A stretch of 64,000 nt of DNA from Candidatus Omnitrophota bacterium (GCA_041651115.1 JBAZJY010000002.1:73846-137845); one strand, 5' to 3'. Counted from the first letter of the stretch, positions 9,958 to 58,018 are shown. Program-made: numbers and translations. The notes: generated by a model not told the origin, from the letters alone.

Positions 9958-10905
9958 ATGACCTGGACAAAAAAAGATCTATTGGGCCTGGAATACCTAA
10001 GCCGCGAAGAACTGGAATTGATCCTGGCAACCGCGGAATCCTTTAAAGAAGTTTCCAGCCGCGAGATCAAAAAAGTCCCTGCCTTGCGCGGAAAGACCGT
10101 AGTGAATTTATTCTATGAGCCGTCTACGCGCACAAGGGTTTCTTTTGAGGTTGCCGCAAAAAGGCTGTCTGCCGACGTAATTAATATTGCCACGGAAACT
10201 TCCAGCGTAAAGAAAGGAGAAACGCTTATTGATACGGGTAAGAACATACAGGCGCTCAAGGCGGATATTATCGTGATGCGCCATAATTATTCCGGAGCAG
10301 CGGCAATGCTGGCGCGCAGCCTTGATATCAGCGTAGTTAATGCCGGAGACGGCTGGCATGAGCATCCTACGCAGGCGCTGCTGGATATTTTTACCCTGAA
10401 GGAAAAACTGGGAAAGATCGCAGGTTTAAACGTAACCATTGTTGGAGATATCGCCCATTCCCGCGTTGCCCGTTCAAACATCTGGGGTTTGACTAAGCTG
10501 GGCGCAAAAGTAACGGTTTGCGCCCCGGCCATGATTATCCCGCCGGCAATTGAGCAAATGGGGGCTTATGTTACCAGTGATATTGATAAAGCGCTTGCCT
10601 CTGCCGACGCAGTGAATGTCTTGCGCATGCAGTTTGAGCGCGATGAACAAAATGCCTTTCCAAAACAGTTGGAATATTTTAAGAATTTCGGGATCACCGT
10701 TGATCGCTTGAAAAAAGCAAAGAAAGACATCATCGTCATGCATCCCGGCCCGATCAATCGCGGCATTGAAATGTCCAGTGAAGTTGCAGACGGCGCCAAT
10801 TCCGTAATTTTAGAGCAGGTGACCAACGGCATTGCCGTGCGCATGGCAGTGCTTTTCTTGGTTGCCCAGGCAAGAGAGAAGGGTAATGCAAAAAATACTG
10901 ATTAA
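9958..10905 (+). CDS. pyrB: Aspartate carbamoyltransferase catalytic subunit.
   Basis: STRTRVSFE and HPTQALLD motifs; 315 aa. Confidence 0.92.
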   Translation: MTWTKKDLLGLEYLSREELELILATAESFKEVSSREIKKVPALRGKTVVNLFYEPSTRTRVSFEVAAKRLSADVINIATETSSVKKGETLIDTGKNIQALKADIIVMRHNYSGAAAMLARSLDISVVNAGDGWHEHPTQALLDIFTLKEKLGKIAGLNVTIVGDIAHSRVARSNIWGLTKLGAKVTVCAPAMIIPPAIEQMGAYVTSDIDKALASADAVNVLRMQFERDEQNAFPKQLEYFKNFGITVDRLKKAKKDIIVMHPGPINRGIEMSSEVADGANSVILEQVTNGIAVRMAVLFLVAQAREKGNAKNTD

Positions 10906-12169
10906 GAACGGCAAGGTTATTGACCCGGCGCAAAATATCAACGGAGAAACCCTGGATATCCTGGTGCAGTCCGGAAAAATAGCCAAGCTCGCTAAAAATA
11001 TTAAGGCAGATGCCGATAAAGTAATTGATGCCTCGGGAAAGATCGTCATGCCTGGTATCGTAGATATGCACGTGCATTTAAGGGAGCCGGGCAGGGAAGA
11101 TAAAGAAACCGTGGCCAGCGCTACAGCCGCGGCATTAAAGGGCGGGGTAACGTCGGTGCTGGCAATGCCGAATACCCAGCCGGCAATGGACACTAAAGAA
11201 AGCCTGATATTATTAAAGAAGATTGTTAGGGCTTCCGGCCTTTGTAATGTTTTTATCTGCGCTGCGATCACCAAGGAAAGGCAGGGCAAAGAATTAACCG
11301 ATATCCCAGGGCTTAATAAGTCAGGCGCGATCGCCATATCAGACGACGGCGCGTCAGTAGATGACGAAAACTTGTTTTTGGCAGCGATGAAAAAGGCAAA
11401 GGCCGCCGGTATCCCGGTGATCTGCCACTCCGAAGATAAAAAACTTTCCGGTAACGGTGTAGTTAACCGGGGGATCATCTCCACTAAACTTGGCTTGCGC
11501 GGAATTTCCAGAGAGTCGGAATATACAAGGGTTGAGCGCGATATTAAACTGGCAGAAAAGGCAAAGGCAACAATCCACATTGCTCATGTCAGCTGCCGGG
11601 AGTCAGTGGAGCTCATCAAGCAGGCGAAAAAAAGAGGGGTCAGGGTAACCGCGGAAACTGCCCCGCATTATTTTTCTTTGGACCAGGACGCGCTAGCTGG
11701 CTACGATACAAATCTTAAAATGAACCCGCCGCTTAGAGAGGCCGCGGATGTGGAGGCAATAAAGCAGGGGTTGAAGAGCGGGGTGATTGATGCGATCGCC
11801 TCTGACCATGCCCCGCATACAGAGAATGAAAAGGACATTGAATTTGACCGCGCTGAATTCGGGGTGATCGGCCTGGAAACCGAACTTGCCGCCGGCATTA
11901 CCGAGCTGGTGCAAAAAGGAGTCCTGGATTGGCCGGGCCTGGTAAAAAAATTCTGCCTTAATCCGGCAAAAATATTAGGTATAGACAGGGGTACTTTACA
12001 AATCGGCAAACCGGCAGATATCATGGTTGTTTCGCCCAAAGATGAATGGATAGTGCAAAAGCATGGACTCGCCTCCAAATCCAAGAACTCCGCGTTCATC
12101 GGCAAAAAACTAACCGGCGTTGCCGAGTATACTGTCTGCAACGGAAATATCGCATATCAAAGGCTGTAA
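10886..12169 (+). CDS. pyrC: Dihydroorotase.
   Basis: DMHVHLREPG and SDHAPH metal-binding motifs. The ATG at 10886 (MQKILIKNGKVIDP) overlaps the pyrB end; the track ORF begins earlier at an alternative start. Confidence 0.88.
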   Translation: MQKILIKNGKVIDPAQNINGETLDILVQSGKIAKLAKNIKADADKVIDASGKIVMPGIVDMHVHLREPGREDKETVASATAAALKGGVTSVLAMPNTQPAMDTKESLILLKKIVRASGLCNVFICAAITKERQGKELTDIPGLNKSGAIAISDDGASVDDENLFLAAMKKAKAAGIPVICHSEDKKLSGNGVVNRGIISTKLGLRGISRESEYTRVERDIKLAEKAKATIHIAHVSCRESVELIKQAKKRGVRVTAETAPHYFSLDQDALAGYDTNLKMNPPLREAADVEAIKQGLKSGVIDAIASDHAPHTENEKDIEFDRAEFGVIGLETELAAGITELVQKGVLDWPGLVKKFCLNPAKILGIDRGTLQIGKPADIMVVSPKDEWIVQKHGLASKSKNSAFIGKKLTGVAEYTVCNGNIAYQRL

Positions 12170-12174
12170 AAGCA

Positions 12175-12203
12175 TTGAATATCGCCCACAATAAAGCTAT
12201 AAT
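12175..12203 (+). promoter_or_regulatory. Near-consensus promoter (TTGAAT-17-TATAAT) ending 8 nt before the EndoQ ATG, implying a leaderless or near-leaderless transcript.
   Basis: ttgaat at 12175-12180, a 17-nt spacer, tataat at 12198-12203, and ATG at 12212. Confidence 0.45.
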
Positions 12204-12211
12204 ACTATTCT

Positions 12212-13453
12212 ATGGAATTTATCGCTGATTTCCACATTCACTCAAGATACTCGCGCGCCACATCCAAGGATATGGATGTCAAGCATCTGGCGGAATGGGC
12301 AAAATTAAAGGGCATCACCCTGATGGGCACGGGTGATTTTACCCATCATTTGTGGCTTGAAGAGCTAAGAAATAACTTAGAAGACCTTGGCAATGGCCTG
12401 TTCAAATATAATGATATACATTTTATCCTCACCAGCGAGATCAGCAGTATCTATTCCAAAAAGGGGAAGACCTACCGCATCCATAATATGGTCTTCAGCC
12501 CTTCGCTTAAGACTACGGATAAGATCAATTATAAGCTTTCACAGTGCGGCAACCTTGCTTCTGACGGCAGGCCGATACTGGGCTTAGACGCGGCAGAGCT
12601 TGCGCGTATTGTCTTCGATATTGACGAGAACTGCATGGTCGTTCCCGGCCATATCTGGACACCATGGTTTTCCCTCTTCGGGTCAATGTCCGGCTTTGAC
12701 CGCATTGAAGATTGCTTTGAAGACCAGGCGCCGAAGATCTTCGCTTTGGAAACCGGCCTCTCCAGCGACCCGGCAATGAACTGGCGTTTAAGCGCGCTGG
12801 ATAAGTTCACCTTGATCAGCAATTCCGACAGCCACAGCCCGTCAAAGATCGGCAGAGAAGCAAATGTATTTGACTGTGATCTGGATTATAAAACGATCCG
12901 GGAAGTGCTTAAGACCAAGGACCAAAAGAGGTTTTTATACACGATTGAATTTTTCCCGGAAGAGGGCAAATACCATTATGACGGCCACCGTAACTGCGAT
13001 ATCAGATGGTCACCTAAAGAAACAAAACAGCATAACGGGAAATGCCCTAAGTGCAACAAGCCGGTTACTGTGGGGGTGATGAATCGCGTTGACCAGCTGG
13101 CAGACCGGCCGGAAGGATATAAGCCGTCCAATAGCATTCCCTTTAAGAATCTTATCCCCTTTGAGGAGATCATTGCCGAGGCAAAGGGCGTGGCGTCCAC
13201 TTCTGTCAGCGTAGAGCGGGACTATCATAGCCTGCTTGCCAAATTTGGCACAGAATTCAATATTCTGCTGCGCGCATCAGAAGATGAACTGCGCAAGGGC
13301 CTGCCGTCAAAAGTCGCGGAAGGAGTTTTGCGGGTGCGCAAGGGCAAAGTGAATATTAACCCCGGGTTTGACGGAGAATACGGCAAAGTCGCCATTTTTG
13401 GCGAAAAAGATAAGCCGACAGCAGAAGGTGAAAAGCAATTAAGCTTGTTTTAG
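12212..13453 (+). CDS. Endonuclease Q (EndoQ) homolog. It has a PHP-like N-terminal domain and a C-terminal zinc finger.
   Basis: The N-terminus FIADFHIHSRYSRATSKDMDVKHLAEWAKLKGITLMGTGD closely resembles the archaeal EndoQ N-terminus. GKCPKCNKP is a Zn-finger near the C-terminus. Confidence 0.7.
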   Translation: MEFIADFHIHSRYSRATSKDMDVKHLAEWAKLKGITLMGTGDFTHHLWLEELRNNLEDLGNGLFKYNDIHFILTSEISSIYSKKGKTYRIHNMVFSPSLKTTDKINYKLSQCGNLASDGRPILGLDAAELARIVFDIDENCMVVPGHIWTPWFSLFGSMSGFDRIEDCFEDQAPKIFALETGLSSDPAMNWRLSALDKFTLISNSDSHSPSKIGREANVFDCDLDYKTIREVLKTKDQKRFLYTIEFFPEEGKYHYDGHRNCDIRWSPKETKQHNGKCPKCNKPVTVGVMNRVDQLADRPEGYKPSNSIPFKNLIPFEEIIAEAKGVASTSVSVERDYHSLLAKFGTEFNILLRASEDELRKGLPSKVAEGVLRVRKGKVNINPGFDGEYGKVAIFGEKDKPTAEGEKQLSLF

Positions 13454-13458
13454 TATAT

Positions 13459-13530
13459 GCGCCTGTGGCCCAACGGATAGGGCACTAGCCTCCGGAGCTG
13501 GTGGTACAGGTTCGATTCCTGTCAGGCGCA
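13459..13530 (+). tRNA. tRNA-Arg (anticodon CCG).
   Basis: Cloverleaf folded by hand: acceptor GCGCCTG/CAGGCGC, anticodon loop CTCCGGA, T-loop TTCGATT. No encoded CCA. Confidence 0.85.
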
Positions 13531-13541
13531 CTTTTATAACA

Positions 13542-13623
13542 GCGGGTCCTGTCTGCTGATTTACCCCGCTGCGCTCAAGCTTGCGCTTTCGCTCGCGGGG
13601 TCCCCCAATCAGCAGCCACCCGC
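13542..13623. repeat. Copy A of a structured ~85-nt intergenic repeat (long imperfect hairpin; central AAGCTTGCGCTTTCG loop). It is MITE-like or a small structured RNA.
   Basis: About 85% identical to 37638-37731. Internal arms pair as ctgctgatt/aatcagcag, accccg/cggggt and gcgggt/acccgc. It lies immediately 3' of tRNA-Arg. Confidence 0.6.
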
Positions 13624-13652
13624 GCTAACGAATAAGTGTTTATGAGAATGCC

Positions 13653-14105
13653 ATGACTAAGAAAATCATAGGGGTAATTGGCGGAAGACAGTGTAATAAG
13701 GAAGTGGAGCAAACAGCCATAAAATTAGGCAAAAAATTGGCTAAAGTGGCTGATTTACTTGTTTGTGGCGGTTTAAGTGGAGTAATGGAGGCGGTAAGCA
13801 AGGGTTTTAAGGCTGCAGGAGGCACAACCATAGGTATTCTACCGGGTTACCACAAGACCGAAGCTAATTCTTTTGTTGATATAGTCATTCCTACGGGAAT
13901 GGGATTAGCAAGAAATGTGCTGGTGGTCAAGGCAGCCGATGTTGTAGTAGCCTTGCCCGGAGAAGCAGGTACGCTTTCTGAAATCGCCTATTGCCTGCAA
14001 TTCGGCGTTCCCGTAGTAAGTTTTAATTCCTGGGATATCCCCGGCGTGATCAAGGCCAAAACTATTGAGCAAACAATCAAAGAAGTCAGGAAAAAGTTAA
14101 AATGA
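13653..14105 (+). CDS. LOG / TIGR00725-family Rossmann-fold protein (predicted nucleotide 5'-monophosphate nucleosidase-like).
   Basis: GGxxGxME core ([12 protein letters not shown]) and PGExGTLSE motif; 150 aa. Confidence 0.6.
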
Positions 14106-15724
14106 AAAAGAAAGTGATTATCTTAGGTGGCGGCCCGAACCGGATCGGCCAGGGCATTGAATTTGATTACTGCTGCTGCCACGCTTCCTATGCGCTTGAG
14201 GAAGAAGGCATTGAAAGTATTATGGTCAACTGTAATCCCGAGACCGTATCCACGGATTACGATACCTCTGACCGGCTGTATTTTGAACCGATAACAATAG
14301 AAGACGTGATGAACATTGTTGAATTGGAAAAGCCGATCGGCTTGATCGTGCAATTCGGCGGCCAGACCCCGCTTAACCTGGCAGTCGGCCTGCGCAAGTT
14401 GGGCGTGAATATCCTCGGTACCAGCGCAGACAGCATAGACATTGCCGAAGACCGTAAACGTTTTAAAGAAATGCTCCACAAGCTAAGCCTGTTGCAGCCG
14501 GATAACGGCACGGCGTTTAATTTCAAAGAGGCCGAAGCAGCGGCAAAGCGGATCGGTTATCCGGTGCTGGTGCGGCCTTCCTATGTGCTCGGCGGCAGGG
14601 CAATGGAGATAGTTTATGACGAATCTATGCTGGAAAAATTCATTGCCGAGGCGGCGCGGGTATCGGGCGAACATCCGGTATTGATCGATAAGTTCCTTGA
14701 AGATGCCATTGAAGTTGACGTGGACTTGATCGGCGACGGAGAAACTTTTGTCATCGGCGGGATCATGGAGCATATTGAAGAAGCGGGGATCCACTCCGGA
14801 GATTCGGCAATGGCCTTGCCGACATTTACCCTCTCCGGCGGGATTTTAAATAAAGTCAGGCAGGCAACATACGAAATGGCAAAAGAACTTAAGGTCAGAG
14901 GCCTGATGAATGTCCAGTATGCGGTTAAAGACGATAAAGTCTATGTGCTGGAGGTTAACCCGCGGGCATCGCGCACCGTTCCGTTCGTGTCTAAGGCGAT
15001 CGGCGTGCCACTGGCAAAACTGGCGACTAAAGTAATGATGGGGAAAAAACTAAAAGACTTCAAGTTTACCAAAGAAATTATCCCGGATTACTTTTCCGTT
15101 AAAGAATCGGTTTTCCCCTTCAGCCGCTTCTCCGGAGTAGATGTGATCCTGGGACCGGAAATGAAATCCACCGGAGAAGTAATGGGCATAGACAGTGATT
15201 TTGGCAGGGCGTATATCAAGAGCCAGTTGGCAGCCGGCCAGGATCTGCCGGTCAAGGGAAATGTTTTTATCTCGGTAAGAGACCGCGATAAGCGCGCGAT
15301 AGCTTTTATCGCTAAAAAACTACAAGACCTGGGATTCAAGATTCTTGCTACCTCCGGCACAGCTTCGGCGCTGGAGAAAAATGGCATTAAAGTCAAGGTC
15401 CTGCGTAAGATCGCCGAGGGCAGGCCGAATATATTGGATCTAATGAAAGACGGGAAGGTTCAGCTGGCGATCAACACGCCTTCAGGCAGGGTGCCGCGCC
15501 AGGATGAAGTGGCCATCCGTTCGCGCGTTATTCGTTACGGCATACCTTATACCACGACGATTTCCGGCGCCCAGGCAACTACAAATGGCATTGAGGCGCT
15601 GATGAAAAGGGGCCTGGATGTAAAGCCGCTGCAGGAATACCATAAAAAAATCAAAAGTCAAAAATCAAAAGTCAAAACAAGATGGCCTAAGGAAGATAAA
15701 AATGCCGGAACTTCCAGAAGTTGA
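14102..15724 (+). CDS. carB: Carbamoyl-phosphate synthase large subunit, C-terminal half (second ATP-grasp plus MGS-like domain). This is a split carB.
   Basis: Starts [28 protein letters not shown], which is the second repeat of CarB. An MGS-like domain (ILATSGTAS) sits at the C-terminus. The low-complexity tail overlaps fpg. Confidence 0.85.
15646..15673 (+). repeat. Tandem 14-bp duplication (AAAAATCAAAAGTC x2, 28 bp) in the carB 3' tail.
   Basis: Read directly. Removing one copy restores a TAA at 15688-15690 ahead of the fpg RBS. Confidence 0.6.
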
Positions 15725-45011: not shown

Positions 45012-45640
45012 ACAAGGAGCTGAACTCTATTTATAATAAGTTATACAAGGCCTTTGGCCCGCAGAAATGGTGGCCGGCAGAAACAGCTTTTGAGGTGATG
45101 GTGGGAGCGATCCTCACCCAGAATACCAGCTGGACTAACGTGGAAAAAGCGATTGCCAGCCTAAAAAAACATAAAGCGCTGGATTCGCGCAAGCTGCGCC
45201 GCCTAAGCCACAAGCAGTTAAGCCGGCTGATTAAGCCGGCAGGTTACTATAACATTAAGGCAAAACGGCTGAAGAATTTTCTTGATTTCTTATTCGGCGC
45301 GTATAAGGCCGACATCAGAAAAATGTCAGCTGTTGACACCGATATTTTGCGCGGGCAATTGCTGTCGGTAAACGGCATTGGCCCGGAAACAGCGGATTCA
45401 ATCCTGCTTTATGCCTTGAACAAGCCGGTGTTCGTAGTCGATGCTTACACTAAGAGGATCATCGGCAGGCACAAGCTGATAAAAGAGTCTAGCGGATACG
45501 ACGAGGTGCAGAAGCTGTTTATGTCCGGCCTTAAGAAGGAAGAAAAAATATTTAACGAATATCACGCGCTTCTGGTAAAATTAGCTAAGGACTTCTGTTT
45601 AAAGTCAAAGCCAAAATGCGAAAAATGCCCGATAAAATAA
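45008..45640 (+). CDS. HhH-GPD superfamily base-excision DNA glycosylase (endonuclease III-related).
   Basis: HhH motif LLSVNGIGPETADSIL, a catalytic Asp (VVDAY) and a C-terminal Cys cluster. Confidence 0.7.
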   Translation: MNKELNSIYNKLYKAFGPQKWWPAETAFEVMVGAILTQNTSWTNVEKAIASLKKHKALDSRKLRRLSHKQLSRLIKPAGYYNIKAKRLKNFLDFLFGAYKADIRKMSAVDTDILRGQLLSVNGIGPETADSILLYALNKPVFVVDAYTKRIIGRHKLIKESSGYDEVQKLFMSGLKKEEKIFNEYHALLVKLAKDFCLKSKPKCEKCPIK

Positions 45641-46965
45641 AAAAAGAAAAAAGCCGGCTATGGAAAAGATTATACCGGGATTTTTCTTTAGGCCCTGCCA
45701 GGATAGAAAGGTTCATCAGCCAGATGCACGCGGAAATGGATGCCGGGCTGGCCGGCAGGAAAAGTTCGCTGGAGATGCTGCCGGCATTCGTGGATATCCC
45801 GTCGGGAAAAGAAAAGGGAAGGTTTATCGCCCTTGACCTGGGAGGCACAAACTTTCGCTTGCTTGAACTCCGGCTTAAAGGAAACGGCAGGATAAAAAAG
45901 CTTAAAGAAAAAAAATTCATCTTAAAAGATAGTTACATTAAGGGCAACGGAGAAGAGCTTTTTGATTTTTTTGCCGGCTGCATCAAAGATTTTTCCGGCA
46001 GCGCGAGCTGCGACATCGGATTCACTTTTTCTTTTCCGGTCAGACAGAAGGCCGTTGCTTCAGGCATACTTTTATATTGGACAAAGGGGTTTTCCGCCAC
46101 AGGCGTTGTCGGTAAAGACGTGGTAGCCATGCTTAATGAAGCACTGGCACAAAAGGGGCTAACAGGCATAAAAGTTTCCGCGCTGGTCAATGATACCGTA
46201 GGCACGCTGGTTAGCCGGGCTTATCAAGACCATAGCTGTGATACCTCGGTGATCCTGGGCACAGGGACAAATGCCTGTTACCGCGAAAAATTTTCCCGTA
46301 TTGCCAAATGGAAGGGCGCAGGAACAAAAAGCGGCTATATGCTGGTGAATACGGAGTGGGGGAATTTCAATAAGGTTGATGTTACGGTTTATGACCGCAT
46401 GCTTGATAACGCCTCGGAAAATCCCGGCTATCATCTTTTAGAAAAAATGATTTCCGGTATGTACCTGGGAGAACTTGTCCGGCTGGTCATGTTGGATACG
46501 GCAAAGCAGGGTATTTTATTTTGCGGCAAAATGCCCGCGGTATTAAGATCAAGGCGTAGTTTTAAAACCGAAAACATGTCTTGCATTGCCGCTGATCAGA
46601 CCGCCAGCCTGGTAAAAACCGAAGCATTATTACGCAAGCTGGGGGTTATTGGTTCATCTTACGCAGATCGCAGGCAGATCAAAGAAATATGCAACTTAAT
46701 AGCCAGCCGCAGCGCCCTCTTAAGCGCAGCTGCTCTGGCGGCAATAATTTTAAAAGTTGATCCGCGCGTCTTGCGCAAACACACGGTTGCTGTTGACGGG
46801 ACAGTATACGAAAAATACCCGGGCTTTGCCAAAAAGATCAGGGTCGGGCTAGGGCAGATACTCGGCAACAAGGCCAAAAAAATAAAAATAGCTTTAACCA
46901 AAGACGGTTCAGGCACAGGCGCTGCAATTATTGCCGCAATATCAAAGGAGGAAGGTTATGCGTAA
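45616..46965 (+). CDS. Hexokinase-family sugar kinase (eukaryote-type).
   Basis: Signature LEMLPAFV..GKEKGRFIALDLGGTNFRLL plus other hexokinase motifs (e.g. GTGTNACY). Confidence 0.8.
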   Translation: MRKMPDKIKKEKSRLWKRLYRDFSLGPARIERFISQMHAEMDAGLAGRKSSLEMLPAFVDIPSGKEKGRFIALDLGGTNFRLLELRLKGNGRIKKLKEKKFILKDSYIKGNGEELFDFFAGCIKDFSGSASCDIGFTFSFPVRQKAVASGILLYWTKGFSATGVVGKDVVAMLNEALAQKGLTGIKVSALVNDTVGTLVSRAYQDHSCDTSVILGTGTNACYREKFSRIAKWKGAGTKSGYMLVNTEWGNFNKVDVTVYDRMLDNASENPGYHLLEKMISGMYLGELVRLVMLDTAKQGILFCGKMPAVLRSRRSFKTENMSCIAADQTASLVKTEALLRKLGVIGSSYADRRQIKEICNLIASRSALLSAAALAAIILKVDPRVLRKHTVAVDGTVYEKYPGFAKKIRVGLGQILGNKAKKIKIALTKDGSGTGAAIIAAISKEEGYA

Positions 46966-47642: not shown

Positions 47643-47718
47643 AGGGACGGTTCTGGGCCAAAGCGAAAAGTGTCCCCAAAAGCAAGACACTTTTCCCTTT
47701 GTCCGCAGAACCGTCCCT
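47643..47718 (+). terminator. Nested perfect hairpins (outer 13-bp AGGGACGGTTCTG/CAGAACCGTCCCT; inner 8-bp AAAGTGTC/GACACTTT). A terminator or structured regulatory RNA between the OMP gene and the M20 peptidase gene.
   Basis: Read directly. Confidence 0.4.
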
Positions 47719-47729
47719 ACCACGACTTT

Positions 47730-48851
47730 ATGATAAATAAACAGAGGTTAGTAAGATTATTGCAGCAGTTGATCCGCATAGATTCGCAGAATCCCGGGTC
47801 AACGGAAAAAGAGATCGCGTTTTTTGTTGCCGGGTACCTGCGCAAGCTCGGCCTGGTTACCAGGATATACGCGTTTAAAAAAGACCGCTCAAATTTGCTC
47901 GCCTACCTGAAAGGCCGCGGCAGCAAATCGCTTTTGATCACGCCCCATCTTGACACTGTACCCGCGGGAAGGAACTGGAACTTTTTGCCCTTTGGCGCAA
48001 CGATCAAAAATAACCGGATATACGGCCTGGGCGCTACCGATTGCAAATGCAATCTTGCCGCAGGCATGGAAGCGATTAATAGTTTAGTTGAAGATAAGGA
48101 AGTTTTAGATTATAATCTGGTCTTTGCCGCTACGGCAGATGAAGAGACCGGCTCGGATCGCGGCCTGATACCGCTGATAAATAAAGGCATATTAAAGCCG
48201 GACGCGGCGGTAGTATTGGACGCAGATGACTTTGAGATCGTGGTCGCGCAAAAAGGCCTGATCCATTTAAAGGTAAAAATTTCCGGTAAAAAAGCGCATG
48301 GCGCTTATCCGTGGCGCGGAATCAATGCCATTGCGATTGCCGTGGATATTTTGAAAGACCTCAAGGCGTATAAGTTTAAATATACGAAGAATAAATACCT
48401 GAAGCCGCCGACGGTAAATATCGGCACGATCCGTGGCGGGGACAAGGTTAACATCGTTGCCGATTGGTGCGAATTTGAATTGGATTTCCGTTTTTTGCCG
48501 GGGATGCGCGCGGAAAAGATCATCAGTGATCTAAAAAAGATCATCGGCAGGCGTGCCAGGAAATATAAAATTGAAATCTCCGGCATACAAAAAGATTATC
48601 GCATAGACAGCAGGCATCCTTTAGTAAGCAGCCTTAGCGCCGCGTTCAAGCGCTGCGGTATCAGGCCGGATGTTTCCGGCTCAGAAGGCGCGACCACGAT
48701 AACGTTCTTTCAGGATAAAAATATCCCGGCGATTGCCACGGGCTTCGGGGCAGCGGGATGCGCGCATACGGTTGACGAATACGTAAAGATTGAAGACCTT
48801 TATAAGGGCAGCCGCGCACTGGAAGAATTTTTAAAAAGGTATAAATTCTGA
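47730..48851 (+). CDS. M20-family metallopeptidase (ArgE/DapE-like).
   Basis: Metal-binding motifs HLDTVP and ADEETG, and a dimerisation domain. Confidence 0.8.
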   Translation: MINKQRLVRLLQQLIRIDSQNPGSTEKEIAFFVAGYLRKLGLVTRIYAFKKDRSNLLAYLKGRGSKSLLITPHLDTVPAGRNWNFLPFGATIKNNRIYGLGATDCKCNLAAGMEAINSLVEDKEVLDYNLVFAATADEETGSDRGLIPLINKGILKPDAAVVLDADDFEIVVAQKGLIHLKVKISGKKAHGAYPWRGINAIAIAVDILKDLKAYKFKYTKNKYLKPPTVNIGTIRGGDKVNIVADWCEFELDFRFLPGMRAEKIISDLKKIIGRRARKYKIEISGIQKDYRIDSRHPLVSSLSAAFKRCGIRPDVSGSEGATTITFFQDKNIPAIATGFGAAGCAHTVDEYVKIEDLYKGSRALEEFLKRYKF

Positions 48852-48871: not shown

Positions 48872-49837
48872 ATGGAAGGTATTAAAATCATCAAGCGGCC
48901 GAAATTAAAAGACCCTTATCTTATTGTTGCCTGGCCGGGAATGGGCGAAGTGGCGTTTAAATCAGCGCACTACCTCGTAGAAACGCTCAAGGCGGAAGAA
49001 TGCGCAGAGCTATTGGCGGATGAATTCTTTTATCCTACCTCAAGCAACGTTAAGAGCGGGGTATTAAGCCTGCCTGACCTGCCGAGCGGCAAGTTCTATT
49101 ACTGGAAAAATAAATCCGGCAAGAACGACATTGTCATCTTTATGAGTAATGCCCAGCCTGACCTTTCCGGCTCAGAGTTATATTGCGAGCGGATACTTGC
49201 TTATGCCAAGCATATTAAAGTAAAGGCTTTGATCGGCATCGCGGCAATGCCGCAGCCGGTGGAGCATACGCAGCAGCCCAATGTCTGGGTAACCGCGACT
49301 TCCGCGGACCAGATCAACAGCTTAAAAAAATACGAGCTGGATATCCTTGCCGACGGCCAGATCAGCGGCATGAACGGCCTGTTCCTCGGCATTGCCAAAC
49401 GCGAAGGATTCCAGGGATTCTGCCTGTTGGGTGAGATACCGCTTTATACCATCCAGATTGAAAATCCTAAAGCCAGCTGCGCGGTATTGGAGGCTTTGGC
49501 AAAAATACTGGGTATCCAGATCGATCTTAGCAGCCTGCTGACACAGGCACACATCATGGAAGAAGAGATCAATAAGCTCATGGATTATCTGAAGCTCGGC
49601 ACTCCGCTGGGGCCCATCGGAGAAGAGGAGATCGAAAAAATAAAAAAATCCCTTAGCCAGCTTACCAAGCTTCCGGCTTCGGTCAAGGAAAAGATCGACG
49701 GGCTCTTTAACCAGGCAAAGACGGATATCAGCAAAGCCGGAGAACTTAAGCGGGAGCTGGATAAATGGAACGTGTACAAGGAATACGAGGACCGTTTCCT
49801 TGACCTGTTCAAGAAAAAAAAGGACAACAGCAACTAA
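48872..49837 (+). CDS. PAC2-family protein (proteasome-assembly-chaperone-like fold).
   Basis: N-terminus PYLIVAWPGMGEVAFKSAHYLV matches the PAC2 signature. It has a C-terminal charged extension. Confidence 0.55.
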   Translation: MEGIKIIKRPKLKDPYLIVAWPGMGEVAFKSAHYLVETLKAEECAELLADEFFYPTSSNVKSGVLSLPDLPSGKFYYWKNKSGKNDIVIFMSNAQPDLSGSELYCERILAYAKHIKVKALIGIAAMPQPVEHTQQPNVWVTATSADQINSLKKYELDILADGQISGMNGLFLGIAKREGFQGFCLLGEIPLYTIQIENPKASCAVLEALAKILGIQIDLSSLLTQAHIMEEEINKLMDYLKLGTPLGPIGEEEIEKIKKSLSQLTKLPASVKEKIDGLFNQAKTDISKAGELKRELDKWNVYKEYEDRFLDLFKKKKDNSN

Positions 49838-51947: not shown

Positions 51948-51980
51948 GGGCTCAAGATTCGTGGAGCCCTTATTTTATTT
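51948..51980 (+). terminator. Intrinsic-terminator-like hairpin (GGGCTC-N10-GAGCCC plus T-rich tract) ending about 3 nt before the ATG of the next gene. This is a possible attenuator.
   Basis: Read directly. A 6-4-6 palindrome GCGCAATATTTTGCGC lies just upstream (~51880). Confidence 0.4.
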
Positions 51981-51983
51981 AAG

Positions 51984-52973
51984 ATGCTTACCGTCGGCTT
52001 GACTTACGACTTAAAAAGCGATTACGAGTTTAAAAAAGGTGATCCACCGGACGCAAACGCGGAGTTTGACCATCCTTCGACAATAGACGTGATCGCAAAC
52101 GCGATCAGGTCCCAGGGCGTTAAAGTAAAAAAGATCGGTAATGCCGCAAACCTCCTTGAGCAGATCAATGACCTTAACGTGGCGATCGTTTTTAATATCT
52201 CTGAAGGCATCTCCGGCAGGAACCGGGAATCGCAGGTGCCGATACTCCTGGAAATGGCGGGTATTCCTTTTGTCGGCGCGGACGCCCTGACGCTTTCACT
52301 CACCCTTGATAAGATCATGGCGAAAAAGATCTTCATCGCCGAAAACATCCCCACCCCGAAATTCCGCGAGATAAAAAATACAGACTCGCTTTCCGACTCC
52401 GACCATCTGAAATTTCCCCTGATCGTAAAGCCGCGCTTTGAAGGTTCGTCAAAAGGCCTAAGCGAGAGTTCGCGCGTGGAAACTCCCGAAGAACTGGAAA
52501 AGCAGGCGGGATATATAATTAATACCTATAAACAGCCGGCATTGATCGAAGAATTCATTTCCGGCCAGGAATTCACCGTGGCAGTCGTGGGCAATGACCC
52601 GCCGGAAGTCCTGCCTGTGGTGCAGATAAAAATCGACGGGAAATTGCAATTGAACGATAAATTCTATACCTTCGCGCGTATCACTTCCAATCGCCTTGAA
52701 TATACCTGCCCGGCGCACATAGACGCAGGCCTGAACAAAAAAATTTCCGACCTGGCTTTAAAAACCTATAATGCGGTTGAGTGCCAAGATTTCGGCAGGG
52801 TTGATTTCCGGGTAGATAAGGACGGCAGGCCATACGTGCTGGAAATAAACCCATTGCCGTCTTTGTCCACCGAAGACGTATTTCCGCTCGTAGCCAAACA
52901 GATCGGCCTGACTTACGAGCAGATCATCGGCAGGATCTTAAGCAGCGCTTTAAAAAGGCATAACCTAAAATAA
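51984..52973 (+). CDS. ATP-grasp ligase, D-Ala-D-Ala-ligase-like family (not canonical Ddl).
   Basis: ATP-grasp motifs (LIVKP..GSSKG; EEFI.G.E.TV; VLEINPLP). Confidence 0.75.
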   Translation: MLTVGLTYDLKSDYEFKKGDPPDANAEFDHPSTIDVIANAIRSQGVKVKKIGNAANLLEQINDLNVAIVFNISEGISGRNRESQVPILLEMAGIPFVGADALTLSLTLDKIMAKKIFIAENIPTPKFREIKNTDSLSDSDHLKFPLIVKPRFEGSSKGLSESSRVETPEELEKQAGYIINTYKQPALIEEFISGQEFTVAVVGNDPPEVLPVVQIKIDGKLQLNDKFYTFARITSNRLEYTCPAHIDAGLNKKISDLALKTYNAVECQDFGRVDFRVDKDGRPYVLEINPLPSLSTEDVFPLVAKQIGLTYEQIIGRILSSALKRHNLK

Positions 52974-53996
52974 ATGAAAATCGCGCTGACCTATAATTTA
53001 AAAGAAAAGGACGAGACAAAACCTCCGGATTATTTTTCCGAATTTGATTCGGAGGAAACGATAAACGCGATCATCTCGGCGATTCGCAACCGCGGCCATG
53101 AAGTGTGCGGCGTAAACGCCGGACAGGAAAACCTTTTTTCGTATTTTAAAAGGAACCGCGTGGATATGGTATTTAATATCGCCGAGGGCAGGGCGGGAAA
53201 ATTCCGCGAATCAGAGATCCCGGCAATACTGGATTACCTTGATATCCCCTACACCGGCTCAAATACATTTTCCCTTGCCCTTGCTTTGAATAAAGCGGTG
53301 ACTAAAAAAATCCTCAAGGCAGAGAATATTCCTACCCCGCAATTCCAGGTATTTTCAAAAGGAAACGAAGACCTTGACCAGGCGTTAAAATTCCCCCTTA
53401 TCGTCAAGCCGAATTGCGAAGGCTCTGCCAAGGGCATTAACGCTTCAAACGTTGTCAATTCCAAAGACGGCTTGTACAAAAAAGCCGAGGAAATCATCGG
53501 CCTCTATAAACAGGAGGTGCTGGTTGAAGAATTTATCCACGGCAAGGAATTGACTGTGGGCGTGCTTGAGAACGGCAAGGCCACGGCGCTGCCGATCTTA
53601 GAGATCGATTTTACCGCCTGCGTTAAGAGCGGTGAATATTTTTACAGCTGGCGGATGAAAGAATTTCAGGGCAATGCCGAGCTTGGCCTGATGCCTAATT
53701 TTTACTGCCCGGCGCGGCTGGACAAAGAGACTGAAGCAAAAGTAAAAGAGATTGCTATCAGGACGCATCAGGCAGTAGGATGCTTTGACATCTCCCGCAC
53801 GGATATCAGGCTGGATGAAAATAATGTGCCCTATGTGCTGGAAATAAACCCTTTGCCCGGGCTTGACCCCAAAGAATCTAATTTCCCGATCATGGCATAT
53901 GCAGCCGGGATGAAATACGACGAGCTTATAGATGCGATACTCACCAGCGCTGCCGAGCGCTATTTCGGTAAAAAAGCAATCAGCCGGAATAATTAA
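52974..53996 (+). CDS. Second ATP-grasp ligase, paralogous to the preceding gene.
   Basis: Same motif set (LIVKPN.EGSAKG; EEFI.G.ELTV; VLEINPLPG). Confidence 0.75.
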   Translation: MKIALTYNLKEKDETKPPDYFSEFDSEETINAIISAIRNRGHEVCGVNAGQENLFSYFKRNRVDMVFNIAEGRAGKFRESEIPAILDYLDIPYTGSNTFSLALALNKAVTKKILKAENIPTPQFQVFSKGNEDLDQALKFPLIVKPNCEGSAKGINASNVVNSKDGLYKKAEEIIGLYKQEVLVEEFIHGKELTVGVLENGKATALPILEIDFTACVKSGEYFYSWRMKEFQGNAELGLMPNFYCPARLDKETEAKVKEIAIRTHQAVGCFDISRTDIRLDENNVPYVLEINPLPGLDPKESNFPIMAYAAGMKYDELIDAILTSAAERYFGKKAISRNN

Positions 53997-54013
53997 GAGG
54001 AGGGAAAGATTAA

Positions 54014-55198
54014 TTGAGTAACCTATTGACGGTTGAAACAAAAGCGCAGCAGGAAGCTGTAACGCCGCCACGCCAATCAAGAAAGTCCCTGGATTATCAA
54101 CAGATCAGCCTTTATAAAGACGTTAATCCCCTGGACTGGGAAGATTGGCATTGGCAGATCAAGCACCGCATCCGCGCAAAAGAAGAACTGTCGCAGGTAA
54201 TTAAATTAACTCCCGAAGAAGAAGAAGGCTTAAAAAAGGCAAGCGGAAGGCTGTCATTGGCAATCACCCCTTATTGGGCGACTTTGATTGACCCGGATGA
54301 CCCGGATTGCCCGCTACGCCGGCAATCCGTGCCGGTAAAAACGGAATTCGTGGTCTCTCCGCATGAAATGGTTGATCCTTGCGCAGAAGACCGTGATTCC
54401 CCTGCTCCGCATCTTGTGCACAGGTATCCGGACAGGGTCCTGCTCCTGGCTACTGACCACTGCGCAATGTATTGCCGCCATTGCACCAGAAGAAGGCTGG
54501 TAGGCGAACGCAGCATTGAAGAAACTGATTTTTCCACCCGTTTTGACGCGGCGATAGATTATATTAAAGCCAACCGCAAGATCCGCGACGTGCTGATCTC
54601 CGGCGGAGATCCCTTAACGCTGGAAGACGATCAATTGGAGAACCTGCTGCAGAAAATACGCTCTATTTCCCACGTGGAATTCCTGCGCATCGGTACCCGG
54701 GTCCCGGTAACCCTGCCGCAGCGCATCACGGAAAAACTAGCAACAATGCTGAAAAAATATTCGCCCGTGTGGATGAGCATACATTTTAACCATCCAAAAG
54801 AAATAACCAAGCGCTGCAAACTCGCCTGCGATATGCTTTCTGATTCAGGCATACCCTTGGGCAGCCAGAGCGTGCTTTTAAAAGGCATTAATGACCGGCC
54901 GTATATCATGAAAAAGCTGGTGCAGGAGCTCTTGCAGATCAGGGTAAGGCCGTATTATATTTACCAGTGCGATCCGGTAAAAGGCACGCAGCATTTCCGC
55001 ACTCCCGTGGCAGTAGGCATCAACATTATGGAAAAACTGCGCGGCCATACTTCCGGTTATGCAGTGCCTACCTATGTGATTGACGGGCCGGGCGGCGGCG
55101 GTAAGATCCCCGTAGGCCCGAATTACATCCTTTCGCAGGCAAAAGGCAAGTACGTGCTGCGTAATTACAAAGGAAAGATCTACACCTACCTGGAATAA
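54014..55198 (+). CDS. Lysine 2,3-aminomutase family (KamA-like) radical SAM / PLP enzyme.
   Basis: CAMYCRHCTRRR (CxxxCxxC) and the KamA-type C-terminus (YVIDGPGGGGKIPV). TTG start with a strong RBS. Confidence 0.85.
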   Translation: MSNLLTVETKAQQEAVTPPRQSRKSLDYQQISLYKDVNPLDWEDWHWQIKHRIRAKEELSQVIKLTPEEEEGLKKASGRLSLAITPYWATLIDPDDPDCPLRRQSVPVKTEFVVSPHEMVDPCAEDRDSPAPHLVHRYPDRVLLLATDHCAMYCRHCTRRRLVGERSIEETDFSTRFDAAIDYIKANRKIRDVLISGGDPLTLEDDQLENLLQKIRSISHVEFLRIGTRVPVTLPQRITEKLATMLKKYSPVWMSIHFNHPKEITKRCKLACDMLSDSGIPLGSQSVLLKGINDRPYIMKKLVQELLQIRVRPYYIYQCDPVKGTQHFRTPVAVGINIMEKLRGHTSGYAVPTYVIDGPGGGGKIPVGPNYILSQAKGKYVLRNYKGKIYTYLE

Positions 55199-55202
55199 CC
55201 GC

Positions 55203-55231
55203 TTGACCCCCCACATCCCCAGAGATATAAT
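55203..55231 (+). promoter_or_regulatory. Strong promoter (TTGACC-17-TATAAT) with a ~100-nt 5'UTR containing a CCATAGC-N4-GCTATGG hairpin.
   Basis: Read directly upstream of the EF-G-like gene. Confidence 0.5.
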
Positions 55232-55334: not shown

Positions 55335-57266
55335 ATGGACGCTAAGAACAAGAGAAGTATCATCCTTTTGGGCCACTCACATTCCGGAAAAACAAGCTTG
55401 GCAGAAAGCCTGCTTTTCCGGTGTAAAGCCACCAGCCGAAAGGGCAGCGTTTTAGAAGGCAATACGGTCAGCGATTACGGCTGGGATGAGATTGAGCGTA
55501 AGATCTCCATCAACGACAGCTTTATGTTCTGCGATTTCCAGAATACCCGCATCCAGGTCATAGATTCCCCCGGTTATATTGATTTCTTTGGCGAAGTAAT
55601 TGCCGGCATCCGCGCCGCAGATAACGCGGTGGTAGTAATTGACGCGATAGAGGGCGTGCAGATAGGCACGGAAAAGGCATGGGCGCTTGCAGAAGAACTC
55701 TCTATGCCGCGGCTCATTTTTGTCAATAAATCCGATCTTGACGGCATAGATAATAACAAAGTGATCGCGGATATTAAGGCTTCGCTTTCCAAAAAGGCAA
55801 TCCCCTTAGATGACGGGGTGGAACTGATCGAACTGGTTGCTGAAAGCGATGACGCTCTCCTGGAAAAATACCTTGCGCAGGGAAGTCTTTCGCCTGAAGA
55901 AGTAAACATCGGTTTGCGCAAGGCAGTTGCCAATGCCAAGGTCTTTCCCATAATTTTCGGCTCGGCGCTGAAAGATTCAGGCATTGAAGGCCTGCTTCAG
56001 GCAATAAAAGATTACTGCGCTGCGCCTGATGAGCGGCCTAGCCCGGAGCTGGTTGAGGGCCAGCTTACTTTAAAGCCGGATGCGCCATTTTCCGGGTTCG
56101 TATTTAAAAGTATCATTGATCCTTATGTCGGGCAGCTAAGCCTGGTAAAGATCTTTTCCGGTAAACTCGCGGCAAATTCCAGTTTTTACAATAATACCCA
56201 GAAAACATCAGAACGTTTCGGCCAGATTTACCTGCCCCAAGGCAAGGAACAGCGTTCAATAGATTTTGCGGATTGCGGCGATATTATCGCCATCCCCAAA
56301 TTAAAGCAAACGCACACTTCCGATTCTTTGTGCGAGCAGGCACATCCGGTAACTTTTAAGCCGATGGCCTTCCCTGAGCCAATGATGTCTGCTTCGGTAA
56401 AGCCGCGTTCGCGCCAGGACGAAGAAAAAATTTCCCAGTCTACGGCAAAATTAACTGCCGAAGACCCGACGATAAAAGTATACCGCGACCCGGAGACTAA
56501 AGAAGAGATCATCTCCGGTTTAGGCGACCTGCATTTGAACGTTGCCGTGGGCAGGCTCAAAAAACGGTTTAACGTGGAAGTTGACCTTGGCACGCCCAAA
56601 GTCCCGTATAAAGAAACAGTTACCAAGACAGTGCGCATGCAGGGCAAATACAAGCGCCAGTCCGGAGGAAGAGGCCAGTACGGCGATGTCTGGATTGAAG
56701 TGAGGCCGCTTGAGCCGGGCAAGGGATTTGAATTCGTGGATAAGATCTACGGGGGCGCGATCCCGCGTAACTTTATTCCGTCGGTAGAAAAAGGCGTGCG
56801 CCAGGCAATGGCTGAAGGCGTGGTTGCCGGATATCCGGTGGTAGATATGCAGGTGGTGCTGCAGGACGGCTCGTATCATGAAGTTGATTCATCGGACATG
56901 GCATTTCAGATTGCCGGGTCAATGGCGTTGAGAAAGGCGACAATGGAAGCGCATCCTGCGCTACTTGAGCCGATCATGGAAGTGGAAGTTTATATCCCGG
57001 AAGATTTCGTGGGGCAGGTTTCCGGTGACCTTAATTCCCGGCGCGGCAGGCCGCTGGGCATGGAAGTAAAAGGCAAGACCAATATTGTCAAGGCGCAGGT
57101 GCCCTTGGCAGAAATGTTCACTTACGGTAATGACTTGCGTTCAATGACTCAAGGTAAAGGCACGTTCACGATGAAATTCCTGCATTATGAACAAGTGCCT
57201 GCGAAGATCGCAAATAACATTATCAGCAGGTATCAGGCGCAAGCCAAAAAAGACGAGCAGGAATAA
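55335..57266 (+). CDS. Elongation factor G-like translational GTPase paralog with a divergent G1 box.
   Basis: Five-domain EF-G-like architecture (643 aa). G1 is GHSHSGKTS rather than AHIDAGKTT. DxxG (DSPGY) and NKxD (NKSD) are present. Confidence 0.85.
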   Translation: MDAKNKRSIILLGHSHSGKTSLAESLLFRCKATSRKGSVLEGNTVSDYGWDEIERKISINDSFMFCDFQNTRIQVIDSPGYIDFFGEVIAGIRAADNAVVVIDAIEGVQIGTEKAWALAEELSMPRLIFVNKSDLDGIDNNKVIADIKASLSKKAIPLDDGVELIELVAESDDALLEKYLAQGSLSPEEVNIGLRKAVANAKVFPIIFGSALKDSGIEGLLQAIKDYCAAPDERPSPELVEGQLTLKPDAPFSGFVFKSIIDPYVGQLSLVKIFSGKLAANSSFYNNTQKTSERFGQIYLPQGKEQRSIDFADCGDIIAIPKLKQTHTSDSLCEQAHPVTFKPMAFPEPMMSASVKPRSRQDEEKISQSTAKLTAEDPTIKVYRDPETKEEIISGLGDLHLNVAVGRLKKRFNVEVDLGTPKVPYKETVTKTVRMQGKYKRQSGGRGQYGDVWIEVRPLEPGKGFEFVDKIYGGAIPRNFIPSVEKGVRQAMAEGVVAGYPVVDMQVVLQDGSYHEVDSSDMAFQIAGSMALRKATMEAHPALLEPIMEVEVYIPEDFVGQVSGDLNSRRGRPLGMEVKGKTNIVKAQVPLAEMFTYGNDLRSMTQGKGTFTMKFLHYEQVPAKIANNIISRYQAQAKKDEQE

Positions 57267-57313: not shown

Positions 57314-58018
57314 GTGAAAATAGGAATTTTTGGCATTGAAGGATTTTATCAAGGCAAGGCTAACATCATTGACAGCCGCGTAAAAGCCCTGAAAGTAATG
57401 TTTAATTCTCCCAAAGAGGTTTATATTCAGGCTGACGTGGTGATTGATGCGGATAAATTAGTTGAAGCTGACGGGATTATTGCTCCGGAAAGCGCGAAAC
57501 TGGATTTGATCGTTAATGATATGGAGTTTGTAGAGACGAGGCTCGGACGGGCAACTGATGATCTGGAAAAAGGCTTGTTTACCCGCTTCAAGGAATTGCT
57601 GGATAAAGAAAAGTTCCTTTCTGAGGCGCAGCTTGGTGAAGACGAAAAGAAGCTGATTGCCGGTTACTCTCTGTTAACGATCAAGCCGGTTTATCTTGCT
57701 AAACCTGAAGAGATAGAGAATAAAGAGAAGCTGCTTTTTAATGCGTATTATTGCTTTGGCTATATTTCCTTTTTTACTGCCGGTGATAAAGACGCGCATT
57801 CATGGCCGATCAAGAAAGGCGCGAATGCCTGGGAGGCATCCGGGGCAATTCATTCAGATATTCAGAAGGGCTTTATCCGCGCGGAAGTTGTGAGCTACAA
57901 TGACCTCACTGCCGACGGCAGCCTTTCCAAGGCGCGTTCCAGTAATCACATTCGCCTTGAAATGAAGGAATATATCGTCCAAGACGGCGATTATATCGTC
58001 TTTAGGTGTAATAAATAA
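57314..58018 (+). CDS. YchF/Obg-like protein with a degenerate P-loop and a C-terminal TGS domain.
   Basis: N-terminus MKIGIFGIEGFYQGKA lacks GxxxxGK[ST]. The C-terminus QDGDYIVFRCN is TGS-like. GTG start; 234 aa versus about 363 for YchF. Confidence 0.5.
   Translation: MKIGIFGIEGFYQGKANIIDSRVKALKVMFNSPKEVYIQADVVIDADKLVEADGIIAPESAKLDLIVNDMEFVETRLGRATDDLEKGLFTRFKELLDKEKFLSEAQLGEDEKKLIAGYSLLTIKPVYLAKPEEIENKEKLLFNAYYCFGYISFFTAGDKDAHSWPIKKGANAWEASGAIHSDIQKGFIRAEVVSYNDLTADGSLSKARSSNHIRLEMKEYIVQDGDYIVFRCNK

Follow-up and report, generated by a model that had tools for sequence, protein, structure and literature searches.

A conserved module of two Ddl-like ATP-grasp ligases and a KamA-family aminomutase in Omnitrophota, fused in other bacteria and in archaea: a putative route to beta-lysine peptides

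The window analysed here is a stretch of 64,000 nucleotides (nt) from a Candidatus Omnitrophota bacterium (GCA_041651115.1, JBAZJY010000002.1:73846-137845). A triad of genes, designated AG1, AG2 and KamA, is located at positions 51984-55198. It encodes two ATP-grasp ligases that resemble D-alanine-D-alanine ligase (Ddl) and a lysine 2,3-aminomutase of the type that uses radical S-adenosylmethionine (SAM) and pyridoxal phosphate (PLP).

AG1: 51984-52973, + strand, 329 amino acid residues (aa); Ddl-like ATP-grasp amino-acid ligase with the Pfam domain Dala_Dala_lig_C.
AG2: 52974-53996, + strand, 340 aa; Ddl-like ATP-grasp ligase paralogous to AG1, with the Pfam domain Dala_Dala_lig_C.
KamA: 54014-55198, + strand, 394 aa; short-form lysine 2,3-aminomutase (radical SAM/PLP) with the domains Radical_SAM and LAM_C.

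All three open reading frames (ORFs) are intact, closely packed and on the same strand, at the coordinates first given for them in an earlier reading made from the nucleotide sequence alone (the sequence-only reading). The AG1 stop codon ends at 52973 and the AG2 ATG begins at 52974, so that the spacing is 0 nt and not the 1 nt of that reading, which had correctly placed 17 nt between AG2 and KamA. KamA begins with TTG and is preceded by the ribosome-binding site GAGGAGG, and no Shine-Dalgarno sequence was found ahead of AG1. Just past the KamA stop codon, ahead of a gene for a paralog of elongation factor G (EF-G), comes the top promoter-like site of the region (55203-55231), with 11 of 12 matches. 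Because the gaps are so short and the best promoter-like site directly follows KamA, the sequence suggests that AG1-AG2-KamA is a separate transcription unit. Within 51948-51983, a hairpin with a T-rich tail, GGGCTC (51948-51953) paired with GAGCCC (51964-51969), ends 14 nt 5' of the AG1 start; it could be the terminator of rex or a leader element. When the window was scanned with Rfam, only four tRNAs were returned, and no known RNA element, riboswitches included, was found ahead of the triad. The GC content is even throughout the region. The window belongs to a metagenome contig of 487 kb in ENA (ERZ27247363, k141_3084633). The closest relatives of the locus were found in metagenome-assembled genomes (MAGs) of Omnitrophota, with protein identity of up to 90%.

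The KamA protein was aligned with the lysine 2,3-aminomutase of Clostridium subterminale (PDB 2A5H), and the match (E = 1.5e-144) covered KamA residues 31-394. The CxxxCxxC motif of the radical-SAM [4Fe-4S] cluster was located at C150/C154/C157, aligned to Cys125/129/132 of the clostridial enzyme. D320 and D357 are the equivalents of the lysine-binding Asp293 and Asp330, R159 of Arg134, which contacts the carboxylate, and K364 of the PLP-binding Lys337. The equivalents of the cluster cysteines, D320, D357 and K364 were conserved in all 105 complete KamA proteins encoded beside AG1 homologs, every one of which is of the same short form (∼394 aa). The C-terminus of the window KamA falls at residue 367 of 2A5H, and it is without the last ∼50 residues, the clostridial C-terminal region (∼368-416), which carries zinc-binding cysteines. 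The top NCBIfam match was the AblA model TIGR03820 (523.7 bits; cut-off, 525.4), which was matched over model positions 6-360 of 417 and missed by 1.7 bits because the C-terminus is missing. The subfamily model TIGR00238 was passed (362.9 bits against a cut-off of 199.2).

Since both lysine-binding aspartates are present, KamA is assigned on its sequence to the lysine type and not the glutamate type, and it is predicted to make beta-lysine from L-lysine. The sequence-only reading had allowed for either beta-lysine or, in the glutamate 2,3-aminomutase (Eam) subfamily, beta-glutamate. The latter was rejected, given that both positions are Asp and not Lys/Asn and that the Eam model TIGR04368 gave 473.4 bits against a cut-off of 650. 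An EpmB identity was rejected as well (TIGR03821, 252 bits against 369.3), as was an arginine-type aminomutase, on the basis of the residues and of an NCBIfam model score far under its cut-off.

Both ligases matched the Pfam family Dala_Dala_lig_C (AG1, E = 6e-40; AG2, E = 2e-36), and they share 40% identity (E = 2e-80), in agreement with their earlier description as paralogs. The best NCBIfam Ddl model gave 197.7 bits for AG1 and 207 bits for AG2 (cut-off, 243), and TIGR01205 gave 165 and 171 bits (cut-off, 245.65); both proteins fall under every curated Ddl cut-off. Weak Pfam matches to RimK and to tubulin-tyrosine ligase (TTL) were also obtained for AG2. No match to Dala_Dala_lig_N was found in either protein, which bears out, at the level of sequence, the earlier statement that they lack the canonical Ddl N-terminus. 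In structure, however, that statement did not hold. An AlphaFold model of AG1, with a predicted local distance difference test score (pLDDT) of 86.9, aligned with Ddl structures at template modelling (TM) scores of 0.80-0.85, with 321-334 columns aligned for a query of 329 residues, and the equivalent of DdlB Glu15, the glutamate that holds the donor amino group, is invariant in both paralogs. The top 50 structural neighbours of the model in the PDB were all Ddl or D-Ala-D-lactate ligases. According to the model, AG1 has a Ddl-type N-terminal domain that is disguised by an insertion of ∼15 residues, located in the ligases after strand 1 relative to Ddl, and no characterised enzyme in the PDB is closer than the Ddl family.

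To compare the active sites, DdlB (its sequence verified against PDB 2DLN) was aligned with 158 AG1 and 111 AG2 orthologs; DdlB numbering is used below. The catalytic set K97, K144, E180, E187, R255, D257, E270 and N272 was invariant in the AG1 orthologs and conserved with single exceptions in the AG2 orthologs. Two changes relative to Ddl are common to AG1 and AG2, namely H63 to Glu and E68 to Arg/Lys, both inside the motif EGxxGRNRE. Ser281/Leu282 and Lys215-Tyr216 of the omega loop were taken to be the contacts of the second substrate of DdlB (D-Ala2), with Ser281/Leu282 holding its carboxylate. The former pair is Asp298/Val299 in AG1, with Asp in 156 of 158 orthologs, and Ser302/Asn303 in AG2, with Ser in all 111. 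The omega-loop pair is not kept: the Lys215 column is gapped in both paralogs, and the Tyr216 column holds Ile in AG1 and Lys in AG2. The omega loop (residues 219-235 of the AG1 model) is also the sole low-confidence part of that model. Because the ATP-grasp catalytic set and the Glu15 equivalent are conserved, AG1 and AG2 are likely to be active, each binding a donor that carries a free amino group close to its carboxylate. The residue pattern would fit similar donor sites and different acceptors for the two ligases, and the acceptor of AG1 probably presents a cationic group and not an alpha-carboxylate.

The linkage of the three genes was analysed across genomes. When one genome was scanned for each GTDB species, over 500 relatives were obtained, and the best 80 loci were analysed; all were from Omnitrophota-type MAGs, some of them mislabelled in the source records. 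The order AG1-AG2-KamA was observed in nearly all of these loci that were long enough to judge. A scan of metagenomes, seeded with divergent proteins of the AG1 clade, added 80 further loci, the taxonomic labels of which are those of the source records. Taking the best 80 loci per scan skews the sample toward Omnitrophota. Loci were regarded as informative if AG1 was followed by 2.5 kb or more of sequence (n = 106), and KamA was present in 100 of them, as 90 full triads and 10 AG1-KamA pairs. With AG1 at least 50% identical to that of the window, KamA adjoins in 99 of 100 loci. Omnitrophota-type loci in which KamA comes straight after AG1, without AG2, include L067 (290-2500), L086, L087, L117, L136, L139, L156, L162 and L165, and the AG1 of one lineage that has no AG2 is 73% identical to the window AG1. 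AG2 is therefore dispensable in some lineages. In an Elusimicrobiota MAG, AG1 and KamA lie 4 kb apart. Median identity across the 80 Omnitrophota species loci was 80% for KamA, 76% for AG1 and 74% for AG2, and the neighbours were less conserved (PurH, 65%; EF-G paralog, 62%; M20 deacylase, 62%; HAD, 52%). The triad is near-universal in Omnitrophota.

Fusions of the two activities were also found. A metagenome locus (L152) encodes a 740-aa protein with the domains Radical_SAM, LAM_C and Dala_Dala_lig_C, followed by an AG1-type ligase and then by a ligase fused to a GNAT acetyltransferase domain. When this protein was used as the query, at least 110 protein clusters of that architecture were recovered (median ∼700 aa; range, 644-879), from Thermoplasmatota, Methanocellales, Woesearchaeota, Nanoarchaeota, Spirochaetales, Deltaproteobacteria and Omnitrophota; NCBI names them merely “KamA family radical SAM protein”. 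The equivalents of the cluster cysteines, R159, D320, D357 and K364, as well as the catalytic residues of the ligase, were kept in 110 of 110 fusions. The ATP-grasp domain of sampled fusions scored ∼365 bits with the AG2 profile versus 286 bits with the AG1 profile, and Ser occupies the DdlB S281 position in 105 of the 110; the ligase domain of the sampled fusions is, by profile score, AG2-like. Five further fusion loci had the following composition.

L171, Woesearchaeota: fusion and a ligase.
L172, Deltaproteobacteria: fusion and two ligases.
L173, Methanocellales: fusion, a ligase and a GNAT.
L174, Omnitrophota: fusion, a ligase and a GNAT.
L175, Spirochaetales: fusion alone.

One or two further ligases of the family are usual at such loci, and a GNAT was present in three of seven (L152, L173 and L174). 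The GNATs of the related loci did not match any AblB model and gave only weak generic matches (PseH, SpeG, RimI, AAC(6')). The constant core of the module is one ligase with KamA, either as the AG1-KamA pair or as a lone KamA::AG2-type fusion, and a second ligase is found in most lineages, not in all. The Rosetta-stone fusions, together with the near-obligate adjacency, are strong evidence that the ligase uses the product of the mutase, and it is considered probable that the ligases act on beta-lysine made by KamA. The co-occurrence of the genes and the specificity residues of the mutase, the two computational checks named in the sequence-only reading, both came out on the side of that reading: the module is kept well beyond the window, also as fusions in several bacterial and archaeal phyla, and the Asp293/Asp330 equivalents are Asp in the window KamA, in the 105 linked KamAs and in the 110 fusions.

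Based on these results, the triad is read, with reasonable though far from full confidence, as a three-gene unit that makes a beta-lysine-containing peptide or isopeptide. KamA would convert free L-lysine to beta-lysine by radical-SAM/PLP chemistry. AG2 and AG1 would each activate a carboxylate as the acyl-phosphate and couple it to an amine, forming one amide bond each, with beta-lysine involved. The donor-side residues are common to the two ligases, while the acceptor pocket has Asp/Val in AG1 and Ser/Asn in AG2; two distinct ligations would therefore take place, giving a defined di- or tripeptide. AG2 would probably handle beta-lysine directly, since it is the AG2 type that is fused to KamA elsewhere. 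Lineages with one ligase would make a dipeptide, and those with a GNAT an N-acetylated form. The order of the steps and the partner amino acids are inferred, as is the product. The suggestion of a beta-amino-acid dipeptide or oligomer in the sequence-only reading is supported by the lysine-type residues, the linkage and the fusions, and its mention of a siderophore-like product found no support. The chances are taken to be about even that the module stands for an undescribed family of beta-lysine di- and tripeptides, made in many lineages by a bifunctional aminomutase-ligase. By analogy with N-epsilon-acetyl-beta-lysine, the product may be an osmolyte-like small cytoplasmic solute, a proposal held somewhat more tentatively, at less than even chances. 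Osmotic hints were seen at L174, where a cluster for trehalose synthesis (TreT) lies beside the module, and at L171, where genes for MscL and for Na+/H+ and Na+/Ca2+ exchangers do so.

Several points weigh against this interpretation. Substrates cannot be read from sequence, the osmotic context comes from two loci, and the window cluster holds no GNAT, transporter or hydrolase that would help to define the product. The module is near-universal and unusually conserved in Omnitrophota of freshwater and groundwater, which is unexpected for a facultative osmolyte pathway. Among AG1-like proteins below 50% identity, KamA was found in just one of five loci; therefore, the wider ATP-grasp family also uses other substrates.

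In a rival reading that would fit the high conservation, the ligases add beta-lysine to a macromolecule, which may be a protein (at a side chain or the C-terminus) or a precursor of the cell envelope. They would then resemble RimK, tubulin-tyrosine ligase, the enterococcal D-aspartate ligase or EpmA acting on elongation factor P (EF-P). Such a role would account for a triad more conserved than its housekeeping neighbours in the genome-reduced Omnitrophota and DPANN, and for its near-universal presence in Omnitrophota; the weak RimK and TTL matches of AG2 and the genes of translation that come after the triad in the window (the EF-G paralog and a YchF C-terminal domain) point the same way. Many loci with otherwise the same gene order, however, lack the EF-G gene, which has a promoter-like site of its own; no target gene is consistently linked, a LysW-like carrier being present in one locus only. 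The fold and the nearest relatives of the ligases are those of dipeptide-forming Ddl enzymes, and a GNAT partner suits a small amine substrate. The module is also found in archaea devoid of both EF-P and murein, and KamA scores 252 versus 369 bits with the EpmB model. On this balance a macromolecular target is unlikely; the same low probability is given to its more specific form, an ATP-grasp counterpart of EpmA-type beta-lysylation that acts on a conserved protein or envelope component common to bacteria and archaea. Beta-lysylation of EF-P itself is disfavoured by the EpmB score and the archaeal hosts, and neither epmA nor efp was found close to the triad, where genes were annotated, or in related loci with examined gene lists. 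Slightly less probable still is the polymerisation of beta-lysine, with or without a partner, into storage or polycationic material, comparable to cyanophycin or to the beta-lysine chain of streptothricin. Relatives with two or three ligase genes or with tandem-fused double ligases, one of which adjoins a peptidase of family S58 (DmpA/BapA type), would fit such a product. A Ddl-type enzyme, however, forms a single bond, the difference between the AG1 and AG2 acceptor pockets suggests defined and not iterative steps, some lineages have a single ligase (L175), and the window cluster has no dedicated hydrolase or primer-binding domain.

The two remaining explanations separate the ligases from the aminomutase. 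If AG1, AG2 or both were real peptidoglycan D-Ala-D-Ala ligases, the adjacency of KamA would be incidental. Ddl models are indeed the best family matches, relatives are labelled Ddl by JGI, and the D-Ala-D-Ala ligase K01921 has been recorded in 176 of 176 complete Omnitrophota genomes, with the gene meant not specified (bioRxiv 10.64898/2026.06.07.730766); that count may partly or wholly reflect genes of the AG1/AG2 type. NCBI names the relatives only “ATP-grasp domain-containing protein”. The scores of 197.7 and 207 versus 243 bits, below all curated cut-offs, the Asp/Val pair in AG1 and the loss of the omega-loop Lys215-Tyr216 argue against a Ddl, in agreement with the sequence-only reading. 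So do the linkage to KamA in 99 of 100 loci and the fusion to KamA in archaea without murein (Thermoplasmatota, Methanocellales, DPANN). Around the triad, in the part of the window that was annotated, neither mur nor dcw genes were found, and the Mur-ligase-like neighbour there is FolC. Within the fetched loci, as distinct from whole genomes, no canonical Ddl was found, and only AG1- and AG2-type proteins matched DdlB. A peptidoglycan role is accordingly very improbable. Least probable of all is that KamA performs the first step of lysine fermentation or catabolism beside unrelated ligases. KamA-family enzymes start lysine fermentation in clostridia, and Omnitrophota are anaerobes with fermentative metabolism. 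However, neither beta-lysine 5,6-aminomutase, 3,5-diaminohexanoate dehydrogenase nor other genes of the pathway were found around the triad or in related loci with examined gene lists, and fusion to a ligase is incompatible with mere neighbourhood. The interpretation as a beta-lysine peptide pathway is therefore retained.

Further genes of the window and of the related loci were recorded. An M20 deacylase of the ArgE/DapE family (47670-48851, + strand; TIGR01910, 246.6 bits against a cut-off of 217.6) has a position ∼3 kb 5' of the triad that is conserved across Omnitrophota, and it could supply lysine (as DapE) or hydrolyse an acyl-lysine product. The EF-G paralog (55335-57266, + strand, 643 aa) falls ∼50 aa short of the models and matches them in two stretches. 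It follows KamA in many related loci, not in all, and shows ∼62% identity between species. The next gene (57314-58018, + strand, 234 aa) encodes the YchF C-terminal domain only (PF06071; TIGR00092 positions 269-367 of 368), with no G domain, and is conserved 3' of the triad in most Omnitrophota loci. Neither was accepted as a partner of the module, given the many syntenic loci in which EF-G is missing, its own promoter-like site and a synteny that reflects close relatedness. Rex was rejected as a dedicated regulator, since only 6 of the 80 genome loci have rex upstream, and the gene is not part of the module. A link to folate through PurH and FolC was rejected as well: these genes occur 1-4 kb 3' in divergent Omnitrophota loci, not in archaeal or deltaproteobacterial ones, and were treated as ancestral gene order. 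Also located in the window were a eukaryote-type hexokinase gene (45616-46965, + strand; Pfam Hexokinase_1/2, with no NCBIfam match), a gene for a protein of the PAC2 proteasome-assembly-chaperone family, here in a bacterium (48872-49837, + strand), and a single ORF of 3021 aa (94-9159, + strand); very long proteins are a reported hallmark of Omnitrophota (bioRxiv 10.64898/2026.06.07.730766).

In the wider ligase family, a 724-aa protein with two tandem ligase domains (∼40% identity to AG1) was found at L084/L085 (8001-11432), followed by a Peptidase_S58 gene (DmpA/BapA beta-aminopeptidase family) and with no KamA nearby. Many other members of the family are tandem fusions of this kind, and the family may make other beta- or D-amino-acid peptides. 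Upstream of the KamA::ligase fusion at L174, a LysW-like zinc-ribbon protein of 61 aa that ends in an acidic tail (...DSGDYFDD) is encoded at 6287-6472, and a weak LysX/RimK-like ATP-grasp gene together with the TreT cluster lies downstream (10829-15264). The LysW-like carrier was not accepted as part of the module, as a pattern search of all loci found it in L174 only.

Few roles of beta-lysine are known: in the osmolyte N-epsilon-acetyl-beta-lysine, in the modification of EF-P, in lysine fermentation and in some antibiotics. The locus points to a further route, one that ties a lysine 2,3-aminomutase firmly to amino-acid ligases of the Ddl type and that has been kept in lineages ranging from Omnitrophota and Elusimicrobiota to Thermoplasmatota, Methanocellales and DPANN archaea. 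In public records its enzymes are labelled “KamA family radical SAM protein”, “ATP-grasp domain-containing protein” and, erroneously, “D-alanine-D-alanine ligase”. If the interpretation is true, a new class of beta-amino-acid metabolites and a new enzyme activity would be added, the natural bifunctional fusion would be handy for biochemistry, Ddl and peptidoglycan calls in the metabolic reconstructions of uncultivated phyla would be corrected, and a pointer would be gained to how ultra-small, host-dependent microbes function.

The module was compared with known systems. The closest precedent in physiology is the AblA/AblB system, which makes N-epsilon-acetyl-beta-lysine, a compatible solute found in methanogens and in some bacteria (PMC1224877, PMC12776343). 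There, too, the gene for a KamA-family lysine 2,3-aminomutase adjoins that for an enzyme by which an amine of beta-lysine is acylated. The product proposed here would also be a small cytoplasmic solute, and the window KamA obtains its top score with the AblA model. It differs in being a short form without the C-terminal region, its partner is one or two ATP-grasp ligases and not the AblB GNAT, and the acyl group would be an amino acid and not acetate; no gene called or scanned in the surroundings of the triad encodes a GNAT, of the AblB type or any other. With EpmB/EpmA the module shares a KamA-family aminomutase without a C-terminal extension that would feed beta-lysine to an ATP-dependent ligase. 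KamA is not EpmB by its model score (252 versus 369 bits), however; the ligase is of the ATP-grasp type and not a paralog of lysyl-tRNA synthetase, and the module occurs in archaea, which have no EF-P. Ddl itself shares with AG1 the three-domain fold (TM 0.80-0.85), and its ATP- and Mg-binding residues, catalytic residues and donor-amino Glu are conserved in the ligases. They differ from it in their scores under the curated cut-offs, the 15-residue insertion after strand 1, the H63 to Glu and E68 to Arg/Lys changes, the replacement of S281/L282 (Asp/Val in AG1, Ser/Asn in AG2), an omega loop that is not conserved and is of low confidence in the AG1 model, the lack of cell-wall gene context and their presence in archaea.

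In the full-text literature, searched without the 2009 amidoligase survey of Iyer et al. (PMC3268129), no published description of a module of KamA and a Ddl-like ATP-grasp ligase was found, and the sequence-only reading had not recognised the triad as a known pathway either. The only similar adjacency in that literature was that of pboF and pboG in the Pbo cluster of Pseudomonas syringae, where a KamA-like radical SAM gene adjoins the gene for an ATP-grasp amino-acid ligase and the product is also unknown (PMC8473136). That ligase, however, is of the L-amino-acid-ligase (BL00235) type, and the pair belongs to a 16-gene, toxin-related secondary-metabolite island with parts of a nonribosomal peptide synthetase. 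The enzyme families of the triad are known; as far as checked, the pathway and the bifunctional fusion enzyme are undescribed. In the PylB/PylC system, a radical-SAM lysine mutase has as its partner a Ddl-related ATP-grasp ligase that joins the rearranged amino acid to a second one through an amide (N-epsilon-acyl-lysine). PylB differs from KamA in that it is neither a KamA-family nor a PLP-dependent enzyme, PylC (TIGR03909) was not among the NCBIfam matches listed for AG1 and AG2 nor found in the PDB sequence search, and no pylD, pylS or pylT genes are present with the triad. The pairing of a mutase with a Ddl-like ligase is nevertheless the same, and PylB/PylC is the best mechanistic analogue of the triad.

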